Counted from the stretch's first letter, positions 5,516 through 48,264 are shown. The stretch: 64,000 nucleotides of DNA from an uncultured Oscillospiraceae bacterium (GCA_964461815.1 CAYWVF010000014.1:1515-65514); one strand, 5' to 3'. Notes: generated from the sequence alone by a model not told the origin. Numbers and translations are program-made.

Positions 5516-5686
5516 AATATTGGGTTCCTCGTAAATATATGTTATAGCATACCATATTGAGTGTGCTGATTGCAATGAAAAATGCAAAAATTCATAAATT
5601 ATTCACATGACAGAACTTTTCTTTATGGAATATTTATATGGGATAATGTATAATTATTATATATGCATAAGATGAGAGAGGTAGAG

Positions 5687-6793
5687 ATGAAAAGATTAAA
5701 GACGTTGTTTCCCATATCGGTAAAGGACACACTGCTGGCTGTGGCGATAATGGTGAGCGCAGCGCTTGTGTGCATGTTGTTGAGAACATTTGACGACGGT
5801 GACATATATGTTTCAATGATATTTCTGCTTGCTGTATTTCTGGTGTCAAGGAATACGACGGGGTATTTTTACGGAATAGCATCATCGATAATGAGCGTTT
5901 TTTTCGTAAATTATGTGTTTACAGAGCCTTATATGGCGTTTAATTTTACATTATCTGGATATCCGACTACATTTGTATGTATGCTGCTGGTGTCTGTTAT
6001 AACAAGTGTTATGACGACTCAGGTGAAAGAGCGCGAAAAGCTCAAAAAGGAAGCCGATACCGAAAAAATGCGCTCAAATTTACTCAGAGCCGTATCGCAT
6101 GACCTCAGAACACCGCTGACCTCTATACTCGGCTCGGTATCCGCTGTGCTTGAAAACGGAAATGCACTGGGCGAAAAGAAATGCCGTGAGCTTATACTTG
6201 ATGTAAAGAATGATGCCGAATGGCTGATCAGAATGGTAGAAAATCTGCTGACGGTCACGAGGATCGGTGAGGGACGTGCAGAGCTTCAAAAAATACCGCA
6301 GGCAGTTGAGGAGATAGTAGCGGAGTCCGTTGAAAAATATAAGAAGAGATGGAGCAGAAGACTCGAGGTCGGGTCGGAACAGAGCAAAGTAAACCCATCT
6401 ACACCGCCTGTAACGGTGAGTGTACCCGACGATTTTCTGCTTGTGCCAATGGACGCATTGCTCATAGAGCAGGTCATTATTAATTTGATAGAAAATGCTG
6501 CATTACATGCAAAAAATGCGAAGAATATATGGCTCAGAGTGCGAAAGAATCATGATTCGGCTGTATTTGAGGTGCAGGATGACGGAAGCGGCATAGCACC
6601 CGAGCTGATGGATCATATTTTTGACGGCTATTTCAGTAGAGAAAAGGTAAACGGAGGAGATACAAGACGTGATATGGGCATAGGCTTATCGGTGTGTAAA
6701 TCTATAATAAATGCACACGGAGGGACGATGAAAGCCGAAAATTTGCCTGAGGGTGGAGCAAAGTTTACTTTTGCACTTCCGCTGGAGAAATAA
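5687..6793 (+). CDS. Sensor histidine kinase, KdpD C-terminal type (DUF4118 TM domain + HisKA + HATPase), lacking the KdpD N-terminal/Usp domains
   Basis: Start at MKRLKTLF with an upstream AGAGAGGTAGAG ribosome-binding site. Three to four TM helices resembling DUF4118. H-box RAVSHDLRTPLTSILG. G-box region DDGSGIAPE...GIGLSV. Confidence 0.8.
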   Translation: MKRLKTLFPISVKDTLLAVAIMVSAALVCMLLRTFDDGDIYVSMIFLLAVFLVSRNTTGYFYGIASSIMSVFFVNYVFTEPYMAFNFTLSGYPTTFVCMLLVSVITSVMTTQVKEREKLKKEADTEKMRSNLLRAVSHDLRTPLTSILGSVSAVLENGNALGEKKCRELILDVKNDAEWLIRMVENLLTVTRIGEGRAELQKIPQAVEEIVAESVEKYKKRWSRRLEVGSEQSKVNPSTPPVTVSVPDDFLLVPMDALLIEQVIINLIENAALHAKNAKNIWLRVRKNHDSAVFEVQDDGSGIAPELMDHIFDGYFSREKVNGGDTRRDMGIGLSVCKSIINAHGGTMKAENLPEGGAKFTFALPLEK

Positions 6794-6808
6794 AGGAGAT
6801 TTAAGGGT

Positions 6809-7513
6809 ATGGGAAATAAGCAGTGTATTTTGATAGTTGAAGACGAGAGCAGTATATCAAACTTCATGTCTGCGATGCTTGCGGCAAATGAATACTCTGT
6901 AATTAATGCCAAAAACGGACAGCAGGCAATGACGATGATAGCCTCACACTGCCCCGATCTGATCCTTTTGGATCTTGGCTTGCCTGATATGGACGGACTC
7001 GATATAATACAAAGTGTACGTAAATGGGCTTCAATACCTATTATAGTAGTATCTGCACGAGACAGAGAGCGTGACAAGGTAGAAGCACTTGACGCAGGTG
7101 CAGACGATTATATTACAAAGCCCTTCGGAACATCGGAAATGCTTGCGAGGATACGTACCGCTCTCCGCCATGGCTTCGGCACGGTAGAGTCAAAAACGAA
7201 TATGCCGAGGATGTACTCGTCAGGCGGCTTGACGGTGGATATTGAGCGGCGGCGTGTAAGTGTTGATGGGACCGAGGTGCATCTTACGCAGATAGAGTTT
7301 AAGATAGTAGCACTGCTGACAAAGTACTCGGGTAAAGTGCTCACGTATGATTTTATTTTAAGAAATATTTGGGGTCCGTATACAGATAGAGATAATCAGA
7401 TACTGCGTGTAAATATGGCGAATATAAGACGAAAGCTTGAAACAAATCCTGCCGAACCGAAGTATATACAGACTGAGGTCGGTGTGGGCTACAGAATGGC
7501 TGAGTGCGAGTAA
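6809..7513 (+). CDS. OmpR-family response regulator, KdpE-like
   Basis: Receiver domain (ILIVEDE ... DLILLDLGLPDMDG). Winged-helix C-terminus (LTQIEFKIVALL...RRKLE). Confidence 0.85.
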   Translation: MGNKQCILIVEDESSISNFMSAMLAANEYSVINAKNGQQAMTMIASHCPDLILLDLGLPDMDGLDIIQSVRKWASIPIIVVSARDRERDKVEALDAGADDYITKPFGTSEMLARIRTALRHGFGTVESKTNMPRMYSSGGLTVDIERRRVSVDGTEVHLTQIEFKIVALLTKYSGKVLTYDFILRNIWGPYTDRDNQILRVNMANIRRKLETNPAEPKYIQTEVGVGYRMAECE

Positions 7514-39265: not shown

Positions 39266-39952
39266 TTACCTCTGTGTCAAAAACCATAATTTTATGAGCT
39301 GGAAAACAGCGGGCGCTATGATCCAGATTATCCATGTCAGATGCCATGCTTTAAAAATGAAGCTGAGTAAAAGATATACAGCAACTGCCAGAAGCCAGAA
39401 GGCTGTGACTACCGCACTGAATATTTCGTCATGGTTTTTCTTCGTGTTGTATGATGCAGCTTCCTCGTATTCTCCGTCTGCTCCGTCATATTGAGCCGAT
39501 TTGATCAAATATGGACGAATATCGTTTGGGATCGACATGTTGACATAGATTATCATGCCTGTAGCAATTGATGCTATGAGAAGAAGTACAACGACCGCAA
39601 GGATCGAGACAGTATCATTTGCTGTTATGGATGATGCAACAAGGATCGCAGCTCCGATTATGTACATAGCAACAGCGATAGATGTGAACTTCGCACGTCT
39701 GATACGATGATGCTCGATTTGTGCTTTGAGTTCACGGATATCAGACTCGAACTCTTCGAGAAGCTTTTCTGTATCTCCAAGCGTGGATATTGCTTTTGCG
39801 TATGCTTCGTTCTCGCTGCATCCCTCGGCAACACAATTGTCATAATCTGCGTTGAGGCTTGACAAAATATTCTCTCTCACCTCATATGCACGACGTGAAT
39901 GAGGAACATCCGAAAATAATATGTTTACATAGTTTTCAAGCTTCTTGTACAT
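39266..39952 (-). CDS. Membrane protein with an N-terminal cytoplasmic helical domain (DUF1700/HAAS-like) and a 4-TM C-terminus
   Basis: Start at MYKKLENY with a GGAGGA ribosome-binding site. N-terminal 90 aa are a charged helical domain, followed by four TM helices. No PadR-type partner gene is adjacent. Confidence 0.5.
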   Translation of the reverse strand: MYKKLENYVNILFSDVPHSRRAYEVRENILSSLNADYDNCVAEGCSENEAYAKAISTLGDTEKLLEEFESDIRELKAQIEHHRIRRAKFTSIAVAMYIIGAAILVASSITANDTVSILAVVVLLLIASIATGMIIYVNMSIPNDIRPYLIKSAQYDGADGEYEEAASYNTKKNHDEIFSAVVTAFWLLAVAVYLLLSFIFKAWHLTWIIWIIAPAVFQLIKLWFLTQR

Positions 39953-40251
39953 TTTTGATCCTCCAATCGAAATTCTGAGATATTGTCTTGATATTATTAC
40001 GGCAGAGCAGTCTATCATCGTCGGTTTCGGTACTAGCTCCGAGCATATACGAAAACAGCGGCAATACGATGATCTGCTAAATATATTATATAATAATATA
40101 CATAATCTGTCAACGAATATGATCGTGGGAGCTAAAAAACCATGATGGGATGAAAAGAAGCAAAATTAACATAACACAAACATTTCAAAAAATTTTCGGA
40201 AACATCGTCGTGCTATTATACAGGTACACAATTCGTAAAGGAGAAAATAGA

Positions 40252-40614
40252 ATGAAAAACGAACAGGAATATTTGGTTGAAAAGATCCGCAGTCGATATA
40301 CAGAGAAAAAGCGCATAGAGCTTGATGAATTAAAAGCACTTGATAAAAAGGTAAATACTCCTGCAAATGTATTTGCATATGCCTTTGGTACACTGTCTGC
40401 ACTTGTTATGGGCAGTGGAATGAGCCTTGTTATGACGGATATAGGACAGAAAATAGGTGTTACAAACTCCGATCTTGTAGGTATCGTTATCGGGGTCATC
40501 GGAATGGCGATGGCTATCGCAAACTACCGTATTTATAAATACATTATCGGTAGCAGACGTAGGAAATATGCAAAGGAGATCATTTCACTCAGTGACAGGA
40601 TCATCGGCGCATAA
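40252..40614 (+). CDS. Small 2-TM membrane protein, paralog A (uncharacterised family)
   Basis: 120 aa. AAAGGAGAAAAT ribosome-binding site. N-terminal amphipathic helix, two Gly-rich TM helices, basic C-terminal helix. Paralogous to the product of 43344..43730. Confidence 0.55.
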   Translation: MKNEQEYLVEKIRSRYTEKKRIELDELKALDKKVNTPANVFAYAFGTLSALVMGSGMSLVMTDIGQKIGVTNSDLVGIVIGVIGMAMAIANYRIYKYIIGSRRRKYAKEIISLSDRIIGA

Positions 40615-40722
40615 ATGCGCCAGCACATAAATGCACCTGTGTATAAATTCACCACAGTCAAACAAAACATTAACATTTATATGATAAAATAACGATCAAT
40701 GATGATACTATGGAGGTACGAT

Positions 40723-41394
40723 GTGTTTCGAATATTGGTCGTAGAAGATGATAAGGAGCTTAATCGGACGGTCTGCTCATTCCTGAACGGCAGAGGCTAT
40801 GAGACGGTCGGGTGCCTGAATGCAAATGAAGCGTATGATGCGATATACAGTAGCATGTTTGATATTATCATATCCGATGTCATGATGCCGGGGACGGACG
40901 GTTTTGAATTTGCTGAAAATATACGTGATATCAATAAGAATATCCCTATTATTTTTATGACTGCAAGGGACGATATTGCATCGAAGCAGCGAGGCTTTCA
41001 TGCCGGAGCAGATGACTATATGGTGAAGCCCATTGACTTGGATGAGCTGCTTTTACGAATAGGGGCACTGCTTAGAAGAGCCGGGATAGCAGCTGCACGA
41101 AAAATAGAGATCGGTAATTTTATTATGGATATGGATGAGCATACCGCTTACTTGGGAGATGAAGAGATAAGCCTGACAAACCGAGAGTTTTCGATTTTAT
41201 ATAAGCTTCTCAGCTACCCTAAAAAGACCTTTACACGTACTCAGCTAATGGATGAGTTTTGGGATGCCGATACAGAGACAGCACCGAGAGCGGTAGACGT
41301 TTATATGACAAAGCTGCGCTCAAAATTAGCAGACTGCGACGCATTTGAGATAAAAACCGTTCACGGCTTGGGCTATAAGGCGGTGGTAAAGTGA
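40723..41394 (+). CDS. OmpR-family response regulator
   Basis: Probable GTG start (VFRILVVEDD) 6 nt after GGAGG. Receiver domain and winged-helix domain. Confidence 0.85.
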   Translation: MFRILVVEDDKELNRTVCSFLNGRGYETVGCLNANEAYDAIYSSMFDIIISDVMMPGTDGFEFAENIRDINKNIPIIFMTARDDIASKQRGFHAGADDYMVKPIDLDELLLRIGALLRRAGIAAARKIEIGNFIMDMDEHTAYLGDEEISLTNREFSILYKLLSYPKKTFTRTQLMDEFWDADTETAPRAVDVYMTKLRSKLADCDAFEIKTVHGLGYKAVVK

Positions 41395-42470
41395 AAAGGA
41401 CTGCATATGGATATAGACTTTTAAGAGCTGTATATCGCTATCTGCTGTTTTTTATGCTTGTGGCGTTTGTAACGACATGCTGTATGGTACTGTTTGTCAC
41501 TACATTGACGGAAAGCGTGAATATTACGCTGAATGCCGAAAATTTGAATATGGCATCAAAGCTGACATTCGGAAATGTGATGCTGTTGAGTCTCTTGTTT
41601 ACTCTCATTGACAGTCTGCGCCGAAAATATACGGTGGATAAACCTGTAGAGCAGATCGTTGCAGGTGCCGAAAGAATAATGCAAGGTGATTTTTCGGTAC
41701 GTATCAAATCGAATAAGAGAATGGTGGCAGACGATACCTTTGATGAGATCATCGATTGCTTTGGCAGGATGGCACAGGAGCTTGGAAGTCTTGAAACGCT
41801 CAGAACTGATTTTATTGCAAATGTATCGCACGAAATGAAAACTCCGCTTGCGATCATGCAAAACTACGGAACTCTTTTGCAGGCTGAGAAGCTGTCGGAT
41901 GAAAAAAGAATAGAATACGCAAAGGGAATTACGGATGCATCTCGCAGGATGACGGATATGATAACCAATATACTAAAGCTGAGCAGACTTGAAAATCAGC
42001 AGATATATCCGCAGGTGACACAGTTTGATCTGGGCGAGCAGCTGTGTGAGTGCTTGCTGCAATATGAAAATATATGGGAAAGAGAAAAAATAGAGATCGA
42101 TACGGACATAGCTGAGGCTGTTTCGATCAGAGCCGACAGTGAGCTTCTGAGTCTCGTGTGGAATAATCTGCTTTCAAACGCATTTAAATTTACACCCGAG
42201 GGGGGAGCTGTTTCACTGAGCCTTACAGCCGATGAAGCTTACGCCGTGATCAAGGTCAAGGATACAGGCTGTGGTATGAGCGCCGATGTCGGAGCACATA
42301 TATTTGAAAAGTTCTACCAGGGAGATACATCCCACGCTATGCAGGGAAACGGTCTGGGACTGGCGCTTGTGAAGCGTGTTGTAGATATAATGCATGGCGA
42401 AATATCAGTTGAAAGCACGGTAGGCGAGGGAAGTTTATTTACCGTGAAGATACCGAGGTCACAGATATGA
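41391..42470 (+). CDS. Sensor histidine kinase, intramembrane-sensing type (2 TM, minimal extracellular loop, HAMP, HisKA, HATPase)
   Basis: H-box NVSHEMKTPLA. N, G1 and G2 boxes present. Two N-terminal TM helices separated by about 20 aa. ATGA overlap with the regulator gene. Confidence 0.85.
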   Translation: MKRTAYGYRLLRAVYRYLLFFMLVAFVTTCCMVLFVTTLTESVNITLNAENLNMASKLTFGNVMLLSLLFTLIDSLRRKYTVDKPVEQIVAGAERIMQGDFSVRIKSNKRMVADDTFDEIIDCFGRMAQELGSLETLRTDFIANVSHEMKTPLAIMQNYGTLLQAEKLSDEKRIEYAKGITDASRRMTDMITNILKLSRLENQQIYPQVTQFDLGEQLCECLLQYENIWEREKIEIDTDIAEAVSIRADSELLSLVWNNLLSNAFKFTPEGGAVSLSLTADEAYAVIKVKDTGCGMSADVGAHIFEKFYQGDTSHAMQGNGLGLALVKRVVDIMHGEISVESTVGEGSLFTVKIPRSQI

Positions 42471-43354
42471 AATACAGTAAAGCTCGGAGCTGTCTTCTGT
42501 TTCCGCCTGTTGCCGTTTTAGTCTTACTGATACCGATCTCAGCGGCTGTGCTCGTGTATGCGATGATGTTTTTAGATGAAAGCGACCTGCTTCGTATCGG
42601 TGCATACATATTGTCATTTTACACTCTTGTGATCTTATGTGCTCGTGTGCCGCAGATGATCCGTTTTTTTAAGGAGCTGAAAAGAACGAACAGATACGCA
42701 AGGCTTTGGACGGAGGACGTGCGACTTCGAATGAAGGTAACACTTGCAGGCTGTGTCGTATGGAACGGCGGCTACGCTGTTATGCAGCTTGGACTCGGTA
42801 TTTATAACAGCTCGGCGTGGTTTTATTCACTTGCAGTATATTACTTCCTGCTTGCCACGATGCGCCTTTTTCTTGCATGTCATATATTTAAGTACAGACC
42901 CGGAGAAGAGATGCACCGTGAATTGAAATATTACAGAGCCTGCGGTCGGGTATTTTTAATAATGAATTTAACACTATCCTGTATGCTGCTTTATATAGTT
43001 CGAGGAGATCATATCGTGCATCACGGTGAGATCACGGCTATCGCGATCGCCACATACACCTTTACGTCACTTACGATGGCAACAATAAATGTGATACGCT
43101 ACCGAAGATTTAACAGCCCCGTATTTTCTGCATCGAAAGCCATATCACTGGCATCGGCTTGCGTATCGATAATGACATTGGAAAATATAATGTTGACTAC
43201 CTTTAGCGATAAAGAGATGACGGCACAGGCACAGAGAATGCTTAAGTCCTTGACGGGAGGTGCGATATCGCTGTTTATTGTTGCAATGGCGGTGTATATG
43301 ATCGTCAAAGCAAATAGAGAGATCAAATGCTTGGAGGATAAAAATGAAGAATAA
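42467..43354 (+). CDS. Polytopic membrane protein (about 7 TM), uncharacterised; translationally coupled to the histidine kinase
   Basis: 295 aa, hydrophobic throughout. ATGA overlap with the kinase stop. Confidence 0.6.
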   Translation: MKYSKARSCLLFPPVAVLVLLIPISAAVLVYAMMFLDESDLLRIGAYILSFYTLVILCARVPQMIRFFKELKRTNRYARLWTEDVRLRMKVTLAGCVVWNGGYAVMQLGLGIYNSSAWFYSLAVYYFLLATMRLFLACHIFKYRPGEEMHRELKYYRACGRVFLIMNLTLSCMLLYIVRGDHIVHHGEITAIAIATYTFTSLTMATINVIRYRRFNSPVFSASKAISLASACVSIMTLENIMLTTFSDKEMTAQAQRMLKSLTGGAISLFIVAMAVYMIVKANREIKCLEDKNEE

Positions 43355-43730
43355 TGATACATTTAAAATGACATACTCTGCAAAGCAGCAGGAAGAGATA
43401 AATAAAATTCGAGAGAAATATATTTCCAAAGCTCCGGATAATATGGAAAAACTGCGTGAGCTGGATAAAAGCGTAGGGAAAAAATCGTCGGCGATATCTA
43501 TTGCAGTCGGTGTTGTGGGTGCGATAATAATGGGCTTCGGCATGAGCCTTGTGATGTCCGATTTTGGGAAAATATTCGGCAATAATTCCTTTGCGATAGG
43601 TGTGGCTGTTGGCGTTATAGGAATTGCTATTTTAGGCTGTGCATATCCGTTGTATAGTCGTATGATAAAAAAGGAGCGGGAGAGGATCGCACCTGAAATC
43701 ATCAGATTGACGGATGAATTATTGAAATAG
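43344..43730 (+). CDS. Small 2-TM membrane protein, paralog B
   Basis: 128 aa. Same architecture as 40252..40614 and alignable to it (ELDK.V, GMSLVM.D.G, GVIG.A, EII.L.D). Overlaps the upstream gene by 11 nt. Confidence 0.6.
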   Translation: MKNNDTFKMTYSAKQQEEINKIREKYISKAPDNMEKLRELDKSVGKKSSAISIAVGVVGAIIMGFGMSLVMSDFGKIFGNNSFAIGVAVGVIGIAILGCAYPLYSRMIKKERERIAPEIIRLTDELLK

Positions 43731-43750: not shown

Positions 43751-43796
43751 AAAAAAAGAACGATATCCGACGATCAATATCGGATATCGTTCTTTT
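43751..43796. terminator. Bidirectional rho-independent terminator
   Basis: 14-bp stem AGAACGATATCCGA / TCGGATATCGTTCT flanked by an A-run and a T-run. Confidence 0.65.
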
Positions 43797-43861: not shown

Positions 43862-45883
43862 TCAGCGCATAGAGCGTCTGTTTTTGTAAAGTATGGCAAA
43901 TATGAGTGCAACGAGCATTATCACAAAGCAGATCGCAATTTCTATGAGATTTGCGTAGCTGTGCTGCGTGGAAGCTGATGAACTGCGTGTTTTTTCAACG
44001 TTCGGACGTTCAAAACGCTCGTTTTGAGATGACATAGCTTCTTTATCCATCATGCTTGGTGCTTCTTCATCATCAAACTGCGGTTCTCCGTCACGCTCAA
44101 AGGGCTGTGATATCATGTTTCCGTAGCCATCGGGTGGCTGCATGTCCATTTCACCCATATTATCCGGAGGCTTCATGTCACCCCTTCCGCTTTCGGGAAA
44201 ACCGTCCTGCGGCGGCATATTATTAAGGTCGAAAGCCTCCGGCATAGTAGGCATATCGGGAGGCTCGATACCTCCGCCGTTCTTCATGTCGTGCATGTTT
44301 CCGCCCATTTGACTTCCGAGAACGGAAAGCTCGATGTCCGATGCATCGATGAGCTTAGAGCTGTCCGCTCTTTGTCCCTCAGTCGTAGACGGTATCGAGC
44401 CGTCCAGCTGACCTCTGATGCTTTCGGCACGCATGAGTATCAGCTCGTAGAATTGCTCTGCTGCCGTAAGATACTCATCGTAGGTGTAGAACGAGGTCGG
44501 ATCGGATGCAATGCGTTTGTCGAGCTTTTTACGGAGGCTGAGATAGGTCTGCTCAAATTCACCGCCGTAGATATAGCCCTCAACGAGCTGCTCATAATAC
44601 TCATGGTATTTTTCAAGATATTCATCGTTTTCAAGAAGCTTTGCGAATATGGGTCTGCTCTCAAGTGATACGCCTGAAACGGGTGTGTCTATCGGAAAAT
44701 TAACTACATCGGAGGCATTTCCGCTCTGAAAACCACCAAATGCCAGGTTGTAATCCCACGGTATAAGTGACAGCTTGCCGCCTGATTCACGAAGATAATA
44801 GTTGTGAGTCATATTGCCTGTAAGACTGTCGAGGTTGACGCTGAATGTGTGGACTGCGAGATATTTCAGCATAGCATCAACATCGAGATACTGTTCGATA
44901 TCGTTGCCTTCGGAGATGTTTTTCAGCGCAGCTATGACTCTCTCCTTGTCACTGTCGGAGACGTCACCGAGCTTCGAGCTTTCCCATATCGCAGAGTAGC
45001 TTTCGGGATCATCGTCGGAGTAGGCGAGATCTGAACCGTTGCCTCCCATACCTCCGAATGCACCACCCATTTTCATATTGCGCTTCCCCATATTTTCAAT
45101 GGCATCATCTATAGCTTCGTCTGATCCGTCTGTATGATCGGGAGCATTACCATCGAATGGATCGAAGTCTTCGAATGACATATCGGGCTTTTGAAATTTT
45201 TCAAGCTCCTCCTGCGAAAGACCGTCAAAGACGTCCTTGAAATTCTGCCCTCCGTCGCCCATTTCCATGCTGTCGGGCTTGTAAAGCATACCGTAATCGG
45301 TGCCGTAGTTACGTTCAATGAAGGCTTCCTCCACTGCTTCGAGTGCAAGATAAGTGCCCCACCGCTCACCGTTTATGCTTATATCGGCGTAAGAACACAG
45401 TGAAGCTGATGCTCCGAGATATTTATACATATCATAGACAAAGTATTCCTTCATCATTGTCGCATCGGACATGTTGTTGTTCAGTACGAGCTTGTCGAGC
45501 CCCCAGCAGCTTTGCGAGCTGTCGTAGTGGTCGAACTCTATCTTGAAGCTGTAGCGATCTGTAGTCACCATACTCAGACTCGTATTGCCCTTTGCACGTA
45601 TTCCGACGTTTGAGAAGGTCGTACCGTTTATAACTACATCACAAACGTAGTACTCCTCGTCCAGTGCATTGTTAAGAAGCTCCTGCCACTGAGAATCATC
45701 CATTATTACGTCTACGGTTATGACATCACCGCCGAAGAGCTTCTTTTCATATGCTTTTTGTGATGCGGAAGAATAGCTTTCCAGAGGAAGCAGCCCGGAG
45801 GCATAGGTGAAAAGAAATGTGAGGACTACGGTGACGGAAACCAGTGTTATGATCGCTCTGTCGAAATTTATTTTTCTTGTCAT
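43862..45883 (-). CDS. CotH-family (atypical kinase fold) protein with N- and C-terminal TM anchors and a Pro/Asp/Met/Gly-rich low-complexity region
   Basis: 673 aa. Central region (FSNVGIRAKGNTS...YSFKIEFD...MMKEYFVYDMYKYLG) matches the CotH family. N-terminal signal anchor. C-terminal hydrophobic helix followed by KNRRSMR. Confidence 0.75.
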   Translation of the reverse strand: MTRKINFDRAIITLVSVTVVLTFLFTYASGLLPLESYSSASQKAYEKKLFGGDVITVDVIMDDSQWQELLNNALDEEYYVCDVVINGTTFSNVGIRAKGNTSLSMVTTDRYSFKIEFDHYDSSQSCWGLDKLVLNNNMSDATMMKEYFVYDMYKYLGASASLCSYADISINGERWGTYLALEAVEEAFIERNYGTDYGMLYKPDSMEMGDGGQNFKDVFDGLSQEELEKFQKPDMSFEDFDPFDGNAPDHTDGSDEAIDDAIENMGKRNMKMGGAFGGMGGNGSDLAYSDDDPESYSAIWESSKLGDVSDSDKERVIAALKNISEGNDIEQYLDVDAMLKYLAVHTFSVNLDSLTGNMTHNYYLRESGGKLSLIPWDYNLAFGGFQSGNASDVVNFPIDTPVSGVSLESRPIFAKLLENDEYLEKYHEYYEQLVEGYIYGGEFEQTYLSLRKKLDKRIASDPTSFYTYDEYLTAAEQFYELILMRAESIRGQLDGSIPSTTEGQRADSSKLIDASDIELSVLGSQMGGNMHDMKNGGGIEPPDMPTMPEAFDLNNMPPQDGFPESGRGDMKPPDNMGEMDMQPPDGYGNMISQPFERDGEPQFDDEEAPSMMDKEAMSSQNERFERPNVEKTRSSSASTQHSYANLIEIAICFVIMLVALIFAILYKNRRSMR

Positions 45884-45892
45884 GGCAATGCT

Positions 45893-46564
45893 TTATGACA
45901 TGTAATCGCCGTTGTAGCTGACGAGTACTGCGCTTGTTACACCGTCAAGTGCAGATAGCTTGTTTATAAATTCCGTAGACATTTCACGAAGCCTTACCTC
46001 ATATGTGATCTCGGAATTGCCGGCTGTAATGCTCTTGGATTTAACACTGAAACGCTTTGAACCGCCGCGGATGATCGATACGATATTATCCTCTGCCTTA
46101 GGAGCGTCGAATTTTACTACGAGTATATAAGGACTGTCACCCGACTTTACCTTTGCAAACAGTGTGATAATGATGCCGACGATAACAGCTCCGAATACTG
46201 CGAGCGGTACAAGTCCCGCACCGAGGATTATGCCCTCTGCGATCGACCAAAACAGGAACGCTATGTCAAGCGGCTCCTTGATCGCCGTTCTGAATCTGAC
46301 GATGGACAATGCACCGACCATACCGAGGGAAAGAACTACGTTAGATGTTACGGCAAGTATTACAAGCGTTGTAATAAGCGTAAGTGCTGTGAGCGTGACT
46401 CCAAAGCTCTGGGAATACATAACACCGCTGAAGGTACGCTTATATATATAGTATATAAACAGTCCGATGACTAGCGCAAGCGCAAGTGCGATAACAGTGT
46501 CCAAAAGTGAAAATGATGTGACATTTTCCAGAAAGCTTGATTTAAAGATGTCGTTGAAGGTCAT
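45893..46564 (-). CDS. DUF4956-like membrane protein
   Basis: 223 aa. Four TM helices plus a C-terminal soluble domain. Gene lies 9 nt from the CotH start. Confidence 0.65.
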   Translation of the reverse strand: MTFNDIFKSSFLENVTSFSLLDTVIALALALVIGLFIYYIYKRTFSGVMYSQSFGVTLTALTLITTLVILAVTSNVVLSLGMVGALSIVRFRTAIKEPLDIAFLFWSIAEGIILGAGLVPLAVFGAVIVGIIITLFAKVKSGDSPYILVVKFDAPKAEDNIVSIIRGGSKRFSVKSKSITAGNSEITYEVRLREMSTEFINKLSALDGVTSAVLVSYNGDYMS

Positions 46565-46595
46565 GTTGTTTTACTCCTTAATATTTATTATATTC

Positions 46596-47279
46596 TTATT
46601 CGAACATACGGCATTCCGCGTATTTTGAAAACGCATTCGTTCGTCTGCCGGCACCGGCGGCACAGGCTATCACCTCCGGCAGAAATTCATCGTATTTGAT
46701 CTCAAGTATGATCTTATCCGAGGATGCTGCCGGCAACAGCTTCGAGGAGTCGAAAAGATCCGTAGAACGGATACCGGTACGAAGCTCCGAATCGAAGGTT
46801 ATCCTTATATGCCCCGGCTCGTAGATATACGGCTCACGTGTATAAGCGACAAGTACCTTGGGCTTAAGCTGATCGTTACGCATTCTTATGTACAGCTCCA
46901 GCTTCAAGCTGTCGTCGGACTCGGAAAGAAACTCATAATCACCTCGTATGATCGACTCGCATTCGCTTCGTGTAAGAGGTGCGGAGCATTTCAGACAAAG
47001 CCCGTTGATCTTCGATTTCTTTTCAAGTGAGATAAATGAATCGTCGTCATTGTACATTCGTATACGGAATTTATCACGCTTGTTTACTCCGTCTATCTTG
47101 TCTCGCAGTGCAGAATCGTTGATGTCATCAAAGTAAATACTCTTGATAAAGTATGTGCCACAGTCCGAGGTATGAGAATCAAGCTGCATGATCGGCTTGA
47201 TCTGTGAGCGTATCGTAAGATAGTCGCTGTAGCTTATCATGTATTTAAACTCGTGACGGAACTTATTTGTTGTGTGCAT
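46596..47279 (-). CDS. VTC-domain (CYTH-like triphosphate tunnel / polyphosphate polymerase-like) protein
   Basis: 227 aa. HEFKYMIS start and alternating charged beta-strand pattern typical of VTC/CYTH domains. First gene of the minus-strand trio. Confidence 0.7.
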   Translation of the reverse strand: MHTTNKFRHEFKYMISYSDYLTIRSQIKPIMQLDSHTSDCGTYFIKSIYFDDINDSALRDKIDGVNKRDKFRIRMYNDDDSFISLEKKSKINGLCLKCSAPLTRSECESIIRGDYEFLSESDDSLKLELYIRMRNDQLKPKVLVAYTREPYIYEPGHIRITFDSELRTGIRSTDLFDSSKLLPAASSDKIILEIKYDEFLPEVIACAAGAGRRTNAFSKYAECRMFE

Positions 47280-47877: not shown

Positions 47878-48264
47878 ACATAAGGTTGCGATATGAAGAT
47901 ATGATCGCAATGTGCATATGGCGATGATGCCGGAGATTGCTGCCGGAAAAGGCAGGTAACTTTGGCGGAGTATGTCCGCACACCGTAAGAACGGTGAATA
48001 TGTCGGGCGGCTGAGGATACTGTGTACGCGCGTTTGTGCAGTAGCTGTACTGCATGGCACTATGTGCCAAAAAAGGACAAACCAACACGAAGCAGTAAGG
48101 AGCCGGATAGTGTAAAGATAATGGCTTCCGAGGTAACTTGGGAGAATAGTATGTCTGAATGAAAAGATCCGGTTTTTTCATGCAAAGGTTTTAAACGCAC
48201 GGTACGGTTGCAGGATTTCCTCGTCGTACGAACAAAAGTACGTACAAGAAAGGAAAGTTAGGAA

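Follow-up and report, generated by a model that had tools for sequence, protein, structure and literature searches.

Histidine kinases that lack a sensor domain of their own are common in Firmicutes, and their signal perception is largely obscure outside the Bce, Lia and Sae systems of pathogens. Under Mascher's definition, intramembrane-sensing histidine kinases possess two membrane helices joined by a linker of fewer than ~25 residues and no further sensor domain. In the LiaIH-GFSR and VraTSR systems a sensor-less kinase has an adjacent membrane-protein partner, and the main target is the small protein LiaI (~126 aa), with two transmembrane (TM) helices; the Bacillus WalRK-YycHI operon follows the order regulator-kinase-accessory-accessory.

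Modulation of kinases by membrane proteins through membrane-helix contacts is described for Abx1-CovS and SpdC-WalK. In Staphylococcus aureus, SaePQ form a complex with the kinase SaeS, and the autoinduced promoter P1 carries two direct-repeat boxes (PMC5083920), while ScrA contacts SaeS via a membrane helix (PMC12239555). The locus described here, from an uncultured Oscillospiraceae bacterium, encodes a response regulator (RR), an intramembrane-sensing histidine kinase (HK), a membrane protein with eight predicted helices (8TM) and two mini-proteins (miniA and miniB); this cassette is widespread in gut Clostridia and has the appearance of a so far undescribed unit for sensing envelope stress or antimicrobials. 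It supplies a new case of a sensor-less kinase in abundant, little-studied gut commensals, adds three protein families that have neither name nor model, and carries a sharply defined candidate operator from which regulon members can be predicted whatever the genome. Should host peptides, bacteriocins, feed ionophores or bile be what it responds to, the cassette would be relevant to colonisation resistance in the gut and to antimicrobial tolerance there.

Relation to described systems

The likeness to SaePQRS is one of functional layout. In both, a sensor-less kinase (two membrane helices, HAMP, HisKA) is paired with an OmpR-type regulator; the 11-bp direct-repeat box, GTTAA-N6-GTTAA in Sae, has a predicted counterpart here in WWAAC-N6-WWAAC; and the Sae layout, a strong autoinduced two-box promoter before the accessory genes and a second promoter before regulator and kinase, is matched by predicted binding repeats at 11-bp spacing before miniA (four half-sites) and RR (two). 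In size and topology nothing about the accessory proteins hints at homology to SaeP or SaeQ, SaeP being a lipoprotein and SaeQ having four membrane helices, whereas those here have eight and two. Further differences are the position of two accessory genes 3' of the kinase gene, in tight coupling with it, a box in the promoter of regulator and kinase as well, a kinase linker of ~19 aa as against 9 aa in SaeS, and gut Clostridia as hosts.

The gene order of WalRK-YycHI recurs here, and SpdC and Abx1 are multi-pass membrane modulators of kinases. The systems differ in that YycH and YycI cross the membrane once and have large domains outside it, that the sensor domain of WalK is external, and that SpdC and Abx1, both Abi-domain proteins, have their genes at other genomic sites. 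Domain searches found no sequence relation of the module to WalRK-YycHI, SpdC or Abx1. With Lia and Vra the locus shares a small two-TM target gene, to which some relatives add a small amphipathic soluble protein, but RR is OmpR-type (Trans_reg_C) and not NarL-type, the kinase has HisKA and not HisKA_3, the accessory proteins have no Pfam match, and a domain search detected no LiaF (DUF2154) or PspA domain. BceRS-BceAB likewise combines an OmpR-type regulator with a sensor-less kinase needing a membrane partner, and part of the present family has an ABC exporter link; a BceB/FtsX permease with a large external domain is missing, however, no BceAB-type transporter was found in the module or among its neighbours, and the ABC-2 genes of relatives are optional, upstream and form a separate unit.

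Organisation of the locus

Table 1. Features of the locus, in coordinates of the window (the whole 64,000-nucleotide stretch analysed)
Feature	Position	Strand	Description
P_A with predicted operator	40166-40219	+	four half-sites, then -10
miniA	40252-40614	+	ORF, 120 aa; two membrane helices; first gene downstream of P_A
Short hairpin across miniA stop codon	40606-40621	+	fold, z -2.1
P_RR with predicted operator	40660-40690	+	two half-sites, then extended -10
RR, OmpR/PhoB-family	40723-41394	+	ORF, 223 aa, GTG start; Pfam Response_reg + Trans_reg_C
HK, intramembrane-sensing	41391-42470	+	ORF, 359 aa; TM1, ~18-20 aa loop, TM2, HAMP, HisKA, HATPase_c
8-TM membrane protein (8TM; helix number predicted)	42467-43354	+	ORF, 295 aa
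miniB	43344-43730	+	ORF, 128 aa; two membrane helices; operon's last gene; miniA paralogue
Intrinsic terminator 3' of miniB	43754-43796	.	17-bp stem, dG -28.3 kcal/mol, z -5.4

The five same-strand ORFs reported in an earlier, sequence-only reading were recovered with the same coordinates and overlaps (Table 1): RR begins 108 nt 3' of miniA, RR and HK overlap by 4 nt, HK and 8TM by 4 nt, and 8TM and miniB by 11 nt. The GTG start of RR aligns with the ATG of its orthologues. For the first gene the 120-aa call of that reading is preferred, because a 154-aa form (ATG at 40150), the longer version in the protein collection, would engulf the conserved promoter. The strong terminator proposed after miniB is present, with UUUUGCU directly 3' of the stem; an A-run lies 5' of the stem and a T-run 3', and it could therefore act both ways.

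The proposal that all five genes make up one module gave way to two units, each with its own conserved promoter, and in many relatives a terminator lies between the miniA unit and the RR unit. Here the corresponding interval holds the hairpin GGCGCA-TAAA-TGCGCC, which has no T-run and would terminate transcription weakly at best, making read-through from P_A likely in this genome. Three 16-nt imperfect repeats at 40609-40656 were set aside: Tandem Repeats Finder reported none, they are not conserved in relatives, and they fold only into a weak hairpin.

Conservation and genomic context

Related loci were found via 8TM (80 loci) and via HK (6 loci), other counts being based on 57, 68 or 73 loci; a scan of species-representative genomes located 542 loci, and a metagenome search with one query only 4. 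The hosts are mostly Oscillospiraceae and Lachnospiraceae. An S10-Clostridia ribosomal leader, together with these relatives, assigns the window to Clostridia. Gene order is kept in relatives, as had been proposed: among the loci found via 8TM, the RR-HK-8TM-miniB arrangement, with HK directly upstream of 8TM, occurs in 70 of 80, miniB lying downstream in 66 of these 70, and both 8TM and miniB follow HK in all six loci found via the kinase. The tight coupling is equally general, with RR and HK overlapping by 4 nt in 66/68 loci, HK and 8TM at most 19 nt apart in 73/73, and 8TM and miniB overlapping or within 20 nt in 68/73. MiniA, by comparison, is no fixed 'bracket' of the module; its orthologous group is distinct from that of miniB and is found upstream of RR in 41 of 57 loci, adjacent in 32.

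Flanking genes are otherwise unrelated from locus to locus. The region had been described as an accessory membrane-protein island, a description that found no support: the flanking genes are housekeeping genes, GC content is near the window average (0.424 in the module, 0.451 in the window), and the flanking membrane genes do not travel with the module, neither the DUF554 gene nor the 'DUF1700-like' gene accompanying it in relatives; the latter has no DUF1700 match. A mobile element was considered and rejected, since an integrase adjoins only the L006 family and no integrase homologue occurs at the other loci. A tblastn search of PLSDB plasmids with 8TM and miniB found nothing.

Kinase and response regulator

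Hydropathy places the two TM helices of HK at ~18-38 and ~57-75, in keeping with the spacing of ~20 residues claimed earlier, and with a loop of ~18-20 aa a large extracellular sensor domain is absent. Pfam identifies HisKA and HATPase_c together with a weak HAMP match, HAMP being a precomputed match in many HK orthologues, and a domain search found no input domain beyond TM1-loop-TM2-HAMP; with its short loop, and with HAMP, HisKA and HATPase_c as the only domains detected, HK falls within the definition of intramembrane-sensing kinases. The membrane helices are well conserved (62-63%), and an AAKLTF motif at the junction of loop and TM2 is nearly invariant. Every homologue recovered in a search with HK was an orthologue of at least 69% identity, and no sister clade with a known partner appeared. 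RR is an OmpR/PhoB-family regulator by its domains (PF00072, E 1e-26; PF00486, E 5e-21), is 70-87% identical across nearly all related loci, and has DrrD, MtrA and BasR as its closest solved relatives; against NCBIfam it reached no equivalog cut-off, that of PhoB included.

Accessory membrane proteins

8TM, described earlier as a 7-TM protein, shows seven hydropathy peaks, but the AlphaFold2 model, of moderate confidence (pLDDT 75.6), gives eight membrane-length helices (2+6): a pair of membrane helices at the N-terminus, joined by a basic amphipathic linker to a predicted six-helix core. With eight TM helices and an N-in/C-in topology, 27 K/R would lie inside and 4 outside, as counted from the sequence. 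In the model, the core matches only the membrane domains of zinc transporters (CDF) and has the CDF six-helix fold; such a transporter fold counts against a role for 8TM as partner of the kinase. 8TM stands alone in 5-7 of 80 loci, in three of these downstream of the operator, which is the behaviour of an output gene and counts against an obligatory co-sensor.

The paralogy of miniA and miniB claimed earlier was upheld by pairwise comparison (37% identity over 115 aa, E 4e-26); of the blocks said to be shared, GMSLVM.D.G and EII.L.D are exact, and ELDK.V is properly LDK.V (miniA reads ALDKKV). MiniA has glycine-rich membrane helices and cytoplasmic N- and C-termini. The mini-proteins lie outside well-known families, with no Pfam or NCBIfam family, and miniA, miniB and 8TM alike gave no significant match in Pfam, NCBIfam, PADLOC, PHROGs and PDB sequence searches; a fold search with the mini-protein structure found no PDB match (best E 0.9). 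Recurring sub-threshold matches to DUF2207_C (16/25 mini-proteins) and DUF202 (15/25) were taken as membrane-helix composition, and a match of miniB to the PADLOC '4TM effector' (E 3e-5, 21 bits) was rejected, as it covers the membrane helices only. Module matches in PHROGs were limited to E>0.003, and neither the PADLOC nor the PHROGs models assign the module to an anti-phage defence or phage family. Natural 8TM-miniB fusion proteins occur in other genomes (P0392, P0303) and fit the topology, the C-terminus of 8TM and the N-terminus of miniB both being cytoplasmic; these fusions could be frameshift or assembly errors.

Promoters and predicted operator

Upstream of miniA, four half-sites at 11-bp spacing (TAACA 40167-40171, AAACA 40178-40182, AAAAA 40189-40193, AAACA 40200-40204) are followed after a 9-nt gap by the -10 element TATTAT (40214-40219). 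The consensus from 50 distinct sequences at related loci, always on the module strand, is tTTAAcAAAACtcAAACATTTc.cAAAa..ttc.aAAACAt-N8-TAtaAT, and the operator copy is unique in the 64 kb; of the shuffled controls none gave two or more matches to the 20-mer, and none matched the three-site pattern. Upstream of RR, two half-sites 11 bp apart (AAACA 40660-40664, TAACA 40671-40675) precede a 9-nt gap ending in TGA (40682-40684) and the hexamer TAAAAT (40685-40690), an extended -10; here the consensus from 73 distinct sequences is aaAAcg.AAACAAAACtTTAACATTT..gTG.TAtaaT, present as a single exact copy at each of 40 loci and likewise unique in the window. Operator motifs in the window are confined to 40166-40204 and 40659-40678; in relatives they lie on the module strand only, always 8-9 nt from the -10 element, upstream of RR, miniA, a small repeat protein, ABC pairs and solo 8TM genes. 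On phylogenetic footprinting, WWAAC half-sites at 11-bp spacing are the predicted operator of RR. The strongest operator is the one before miniA, a placement expected of an effector gene, which counts against a partner role.

The view that the sensing unit involves no ABC transporter stands in so far as there is no BceAB-type transporter, and must be qualified in that 14 of 57 relatives (~25%) have ABC-2 exporters downstream of this operator. The best model for their ATPase is that of lantibiotic-protection ATPases, TIGR03740, with a score below its cut-off, and their permeases are ABC2_membrane_4 and not of the FtsX/BceB type.

Proposed mechanism and alternatives

We tentatively favour, at somewhat below even likelihood, an autoregulated two-component cassette for envelope stress or antimicrobials in which 8TM and miniB are partners of the kinase. 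A kinase without its own sensor domain (two helices, ~19-aa loop, HAMP) would be co-produced with 8TM and miniB, which may form a membrane complex touching its membrane helices and HAMP and signalling that the membrane or its surface is perturbed, an antimicrobial peptide or other membrane-active compound being the likeliest cause; this stimulus is a guess prompted solely by the ABC-2 link of a minority of loci. Phosphorylated RR would bind the tandem half-sites, which, judging from the conserved DNA, may stand in for a -35 element. The two half-sites before its own operon suggest positive autoregulation of RR-HK-8TM-miniB, and with four before its gene miniA may be a strongly inducible paralogue of miniB, acting either as a membrane-protective output or by feedback on the kinase complex in the manner of SaePQ and MgrB. 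A partner role for 8TM and miniB is proposed because of the sensor-less kinase, the linkage seen from both directions, the tight coupling, the fitting 8TM-miniB fusions, the operator motifs, the ABC-2 regulon link, and the Sae, Abx1 and SpdC precedents.

A second reading, possible but doubtful, is that HK senses membrane perturbation via its own two helices, with 8TM, miniB and miniA as regulated outputs that transport or protect the membrane; vanRS-HAX and natKR-natAB, with outputs encoded inside an autoregulated operon, are parallels. The solo 8TM genes behind the operator, which form no separate clade, would fit such outputs, as would the transporter-like fold of the 8TM core, the four-site promoter type that miniA shares with the ABC exporters, and the well-conserved HK helices. 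Against this, the linkage of HK, 8TM and miniB is hardly ever broken, the genes overlapping or being 1 nt apart, whereas the ABC pairs, which are effectors beyond doubt, are often absent and form a separate unit; and both partners are present in every locus chosen via the kinase. With some 8TM genes standing alone behind the operator, an effector role for 8TM is as plausible as that of a sensor.

An elaboration of the partner model, which we regard as unlikely, casts the 8-TM CDF-fold protein as a new 'trigger transporter' co-sensor and miniA and miniB as exchangeable subunits, miniB being made with the kinase and miniA only after activation from the four-site promoter, so that the swap would reset or lock the kinase. 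We know of no description of feedback by subunit swapping in two-component systems.

It is improbable that 8TM is a very divergent CDF metal/proton antiporter without a cytoplasmic domain and that metal efflux is what RR and HK regulate. In predicted fold and topology the six-helix core does resemble CDF transporters (YiiP, ZnT1/4/7/8), but the model is only moderately confident, the protein has two extra N-terminal helices, and sequence similarity is lacking: none of 26 family members matches Pfam Cation_efflux (PF01545) even at E<=1, and no PDB chain matches the 8TM profile at E<=10. The D/H-xxx-D pairs are absent from the helices corresponding to CDF TM2 and TM5, whose conserved polar residues are Y125, Y126 and R133, and S221, C232, S234, T237 and E239; the protein ends ~15 residues after the last helix, with no cytoplasmic C-terminal metal-binding domain; Cys residues are lost in distant members; and nothing about the partner genes, which encode ABC-2 exporters and small membrane proteins, hints at metals. 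Very improbable is Bce-like flux sensing, with HK under the control of an ABC transporter whose genes lie elsewhere, 8TM and the mini-proteins being incidental: ABC exporters do belong to the regulon in some genomes, and Bce-type sensor-less kinases depend on their transporter, but the ABC proteins of the relatives are of the ABC-2 type, neither this module nor three quarters of the loci have them, and no further operator copy lies within the 64 kb beyond the two module promoters.

The 8-TM family comprises >3000 representative clusters, and the four-site promoter elsewhere also precedes a gene for a small soluble protein with 11-residue repeats.

Gene organisation, conservation and genomic setting

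The module belongs to a known type of system, in which a sensor-less kinase is accompanied by membrane proteins, and its three accessory families are unnamed. It comprises a mini-protein (miniA), a response regulator (RR), a histidine kinase (HK), a polytopic membrane protein (8TM) and a second mini-protein (miniB). The ORF table confirms five consecutive plus-strand genes with the positions and overlaps proposed by the sequence-only reading (4, 4 and 11 nt at RR/HK, HK/8TM and 8TM/miniB, with a gap of 108 nt between miniA and RR), and the strong terminator it placed after miniB is likewise present. At the position of the GTG start of RR, every orthologue has an ATG. A longer form of gene 1 in the protein collection (154 aa, ATG at 40150; window 40150-40614) is probably called too early, since its extension overlies the conserved operator before miniA and has no counterpart in orthologues.

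Coordinates of the module and its regulatory elements in the window
Feature	Position	Strand	Details
miniA	40252-40614	+	ORF table; 120 aa
RR, response regulator	40723-41394	+	ORF table; GTG start
HK, histidine kinase	41391-42470	+	ORF table
8TM, polytopic protein	42467-43354	+	ORF table; 295 aa
miniB	43344-43730	+	ORF table; 128 aa
Terminator hairpin	43754-43796		17-bp stem; dG -28.3 kcal/mol, z -5.4; then UUUUGCU; ends unit
P_A operator (predicted), before miniA	40166-40204		-10 TATTAT at 40214-40219
P_RR operator (predicted), before RR	40659-40678		-10 TAAAAT at 40685-40690

One genome per species was scanned with an alignment of the polytopic protein, which gave 542 loci, the best 80 of which were analysed; these derive from uncultured genomes of gut and rumen. 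Oscillospiraceae, Lachnospiraceae and Ruminococcus are their main labels, and Acutalibacteraceae, Christensenella and others make up the rest. The gene order recurs in these relatives, with HK directly upstream of the 8TM gene in 70 of the 80 loci and miniB after 8TM in 66 of those 70; when loci were chosen via the kinase instead, 8TM and miniB lay downstream in all six. Spacing is equally constrained: RR and HK overlap by 4 nt (66/68 loci), HK and 8TM are at most 19 nt apart, mostly 1 nt (73/73), and 8TM and miniB either overlap or are separated by no more than 20 nt (68/73).

To judge from its neighbours, the module is a cassette found in many different chromosomal contexts, because each family of flanking genes turns up in six loci at most. 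The accessory membrane-protein island once proposed for this region finds no support, the neighbours being housekeeping genes (rimM, trmD, ileS, the CotH/DUF4956/VTC trio, the S10 operon) and the GC of the module close to the local value. The trio of CotH kinase-like, DUF4956 membrane and VTC-domain proteins lies directly downstream, all on the minus strand (43862-47279), and an S10-Clostridia ribosomal-protein leader occupies 47916-48000 (Rfam RF03136, 42 bits), which assigns the window to a member of the Clostridia. The minus-strand gene at 39266-40018, previously called DUF1700-like, has no DUF1700 match and does not accompany the module in relatives; it gives near-threshold NCBIfam matches to ‘permease prefix domain 1’ and WxxxWxxW domains and, like miniB, a weak match to DUF2207_C. 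An integrase adjoins the module in one family of loci only, exemplified by L006:1-8617, where the module lies between a PIN/MazE toxin-antitoxin pair, excisionase-like and HTH genes, and a tyrosine integrase, and may ride on an integrative element. Two whole-module copies occur in one Roseburia bin (L072, L078) and one Clostridia bin (L055, L088), making cross-talk or specialisation between paralogous modules possible.

Promoters and predicted operators

Upstream of RR, alignment of 73 distinct sequences reveals a very strongly conserved AAACAAAACtTTAACATTT, followed after about 3 nt by TGnTATAaT; its half-sites, AAACA and TAACA, are 11 bp apart and stop 9 nt before the extended -10, in the -35 position. 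A related element upstream of miniA (50 distinct sequences) carries four half-sites at 11-bp spacing, with the consensus TTAACA AAACtc AAACA TTTCnC AAAAn nTTCn AAAACA T, 8-9 nt, TAtaAT. Tandem direct repeats one helical turn apart that replace the -35 are the classic layout for OmpR/PhoB-type activators, and we infer that RR, a Response_reg and Trans_reg_C protein (Pfam), would bind these repeats. Within about 800 kb of related loci the motifs fall on the module strand only, upstream of RR (68 matches), miniA (33) and a small repeat protein of 74-84 aa (15), as well as before ABC transporter pairs (L034, L035, L050) and stand-alone 8-TM genes (L015, L046, L066); the 64-kb window contains the two tabulated copies and no other, and shuffled sequence essentially none.

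Separate conserved promoters before miniA and RR, together with a clear terminator that separates miniA from the RR promoter in many relatives (the window has a weak hairpin only), indicate that the module forms two units, P_A-miniA and P_RR-RR-HK-8TM-miniB, both apparently under RR control. The five-gene set described from sequence therefore stands, but as two transcription units in place of one. A perfect sigma-70 promoter on the minus strand (40085-40113; TTGACA, 17 nt, TATAAT) faces the divergent gene at 39266-40018. Its distance to the P_A operator is about 55 nt, so one short intergenic region serves both divergent promoters. Between the miniA stop and P_RR (40609-40656) lie three imperfect 16-nt repeats, GCGCATAAATGCGCCA, GCACATAAATGCACCT and GTGTATAAATTCACCA, unseen by Tandem Repeats Finder and not conserved in relatives.

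Kinase, mini-proteins and polytopic protein

HK consists of HisKA and HATPase_c domains with a weak HAMP match (Pfam), the latter precomputed for many orthologues, and hydropathy puts its two transmembrane segments near residues 18-38 and 57-75. The loop between them has about 18-20 residues, and as no input domain was found beyond the two helices and this loop, HK fits the intramembrane-sensing type, as had been supposed. An unrelated two-component pair, ordered kinase then regulator, is encoded at 5663-7513 (24-29% identity to HK and RR).

The suspected paralogy of miniA and miniB is upheld by pairwise alignment (37% identity over 115 residues, E 4e-26), and their duplication is evidently old with both copies kept, since each forms its own orthologous group across genomes. 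The mini-protein model (pLDDT 79) has a short N-terminal helix and then a long helical hairpin, with invariant glycines (G56, G64, G66, G86, G90, G93), an invariant GMS motif in the membrane, and invariant IR..Y, L..LD and R...A..I..L motifs predicted to be cytoplasmic; the family spans 2811 clusters at 90% identity. No Pfam or NCBIfam family and no PDB sequence relative was found for miniA, miniB or 8TM, which places the mini-proteins outside well-known families; the only source name found for any of the three is ‘hypothetical protein’, and the literature searched contains no paper describing them, nor the databases a model.

The 8TM protein is polytopic, as described, but has eight membrane-length helices and not seven in its AlphaFold2 model (pLDDT 75.6), arranged as two N-terminal helices, a basic amphipathic linker (residues 61-83) and a six-helix core. 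Complete-looking relatives of 230-232 aa (P0337, P0345) that omit the first two helices support this 2+6 architecture, and, taking both termini as cytoplasmic, Lys/Arg residues number 27 inside versus 4 outside. The family comprises at least 1289 clusters, and an exhaustive profile search gave 3363 representatives at E<=1e-3, of which 718 reach E<=1e-30. Two proteins from the representative search, P0392 (429 aa) and P0303 (353 aa), join 8TM and a miniB-type protein in frame; they may be genuine or products of a frameshift, and such a fusion makes topological sense, since the two ends that meet at the junction would both be cytoplasmic.

Proposed partners or outputs of the kinase

On balance we favour, tentatively, a reading in which 8TM and miniB, made with the sensor-less HK in one tightly coupled operon, would act as its partners, while miniA, an inducible paralogue of miniB, would either feed back on the proposed HK-8TM-miniB complex or protect the membrane. 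This is argued by the near-invariant HK-8TM-miniB linkage from both search directions, by the 8TM-miniB fusions, by clear effectors (ABC exporters) being optional and separately transcribed, and by documented precedents: SaePQ-SaeS, in which accessory membrane proteins control a kinase (PMC5083920), ScrA-SaeS, a membrane partner of a kinase (PMC12239555), and SpdC-WalK and Abx1-CovS, likewise membrane partners of kinases. The main rival, that 8TM, miniB and miniA are outputs only, is somewhat less likely given this linkage. In its favour are the stand-alone 8-TM genes behind the operator, which form no separate clade, the transporter-like fold of 8TM and the place of miniA behind the strongest promoter.

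A metal-efflux role for 8TM is improbable. It rests on the fold, for which two independent searches put only cation-diffusion-facilitator (CDF) membrane domains on top (in Foldseek, the first 27 matches, best E 3e-3), and is contradicted by sequence features: no family member matches Cation_efflux even at E<=1, and the family lacks both the cytoplasmic domain and the Asp/His metal-site motif. Since no sequence-level relationship was found, 8TM fails CDF membership, and the modelled likeness is a structural lead only. Dependence on a distant ABC transporter in the manner of Bce is very improbable, the defining permease being missing.

Comparison with known systems and candidate regulon

By their defining features neither Bce nor Lia fits: the module has no FtsX-type permease (Bce), and its regulator and kinase belong to other classes than those of Lia, with no LiaF. 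In gene order it comes closest to WalRK-YycHI, and in mode of action to SaePQRS, whose kinase and regulator are of the same types and which likewise has a repeat box and, as predicted here, an autoinduced promoter serving accessory membrane proteins. A close documented parallel to the module's operators is found in sae, with the SaeR box GTTAA-N6-GTTAA and an autoinduced P1 that has two boxes (PMC5083920). The module is widespread in gut commensals, brings three unnamed families, and makes the prediction of its operator and regulon precise enough to test.

Among the 57 loci whose upstream sequence is long enough, 14 have an ABC ATPase paired with an ABC-2 permease, once or twice, between miniA (or P_A) and RR, and so has L097. 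The ATPases have TIGR03740 (lantibiotic-protection ABC ATPase) as best model at 197-207 bits, below its 310-bit cut-off, and the permeases match ABC2_membrane_4; these exporters are not BceAB-type. The earlier exclusion of an ABC transporter as sensor thus holds for BceAB-type pairs, but is qualified by the ABC-2 exporters of relatives. The sole clue to the signal is indirect: the exporters are optional cargo and the main targets are small membrane proteins, which hints that the module may respond to membrane-active antimicrobials.

Just upstream of miniA, behind a four-site operator, the 74-84-aa soluble protein is encoded at L002:3601-3825, L006:3466-3693 and some 17 further related loci, and is absent from the window. 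It has no match in Pfam, NCBIfam, PADLOC or PHROGs, and it contains three 11-residue repeats in tandem (VVxGYKKxExG), a pattern suggestive of a helix binding to the surface of the membrane. LiaH is the soluble partner of LiaI, and by analogy the repeat protein is possibly a soluble partner of miniA.
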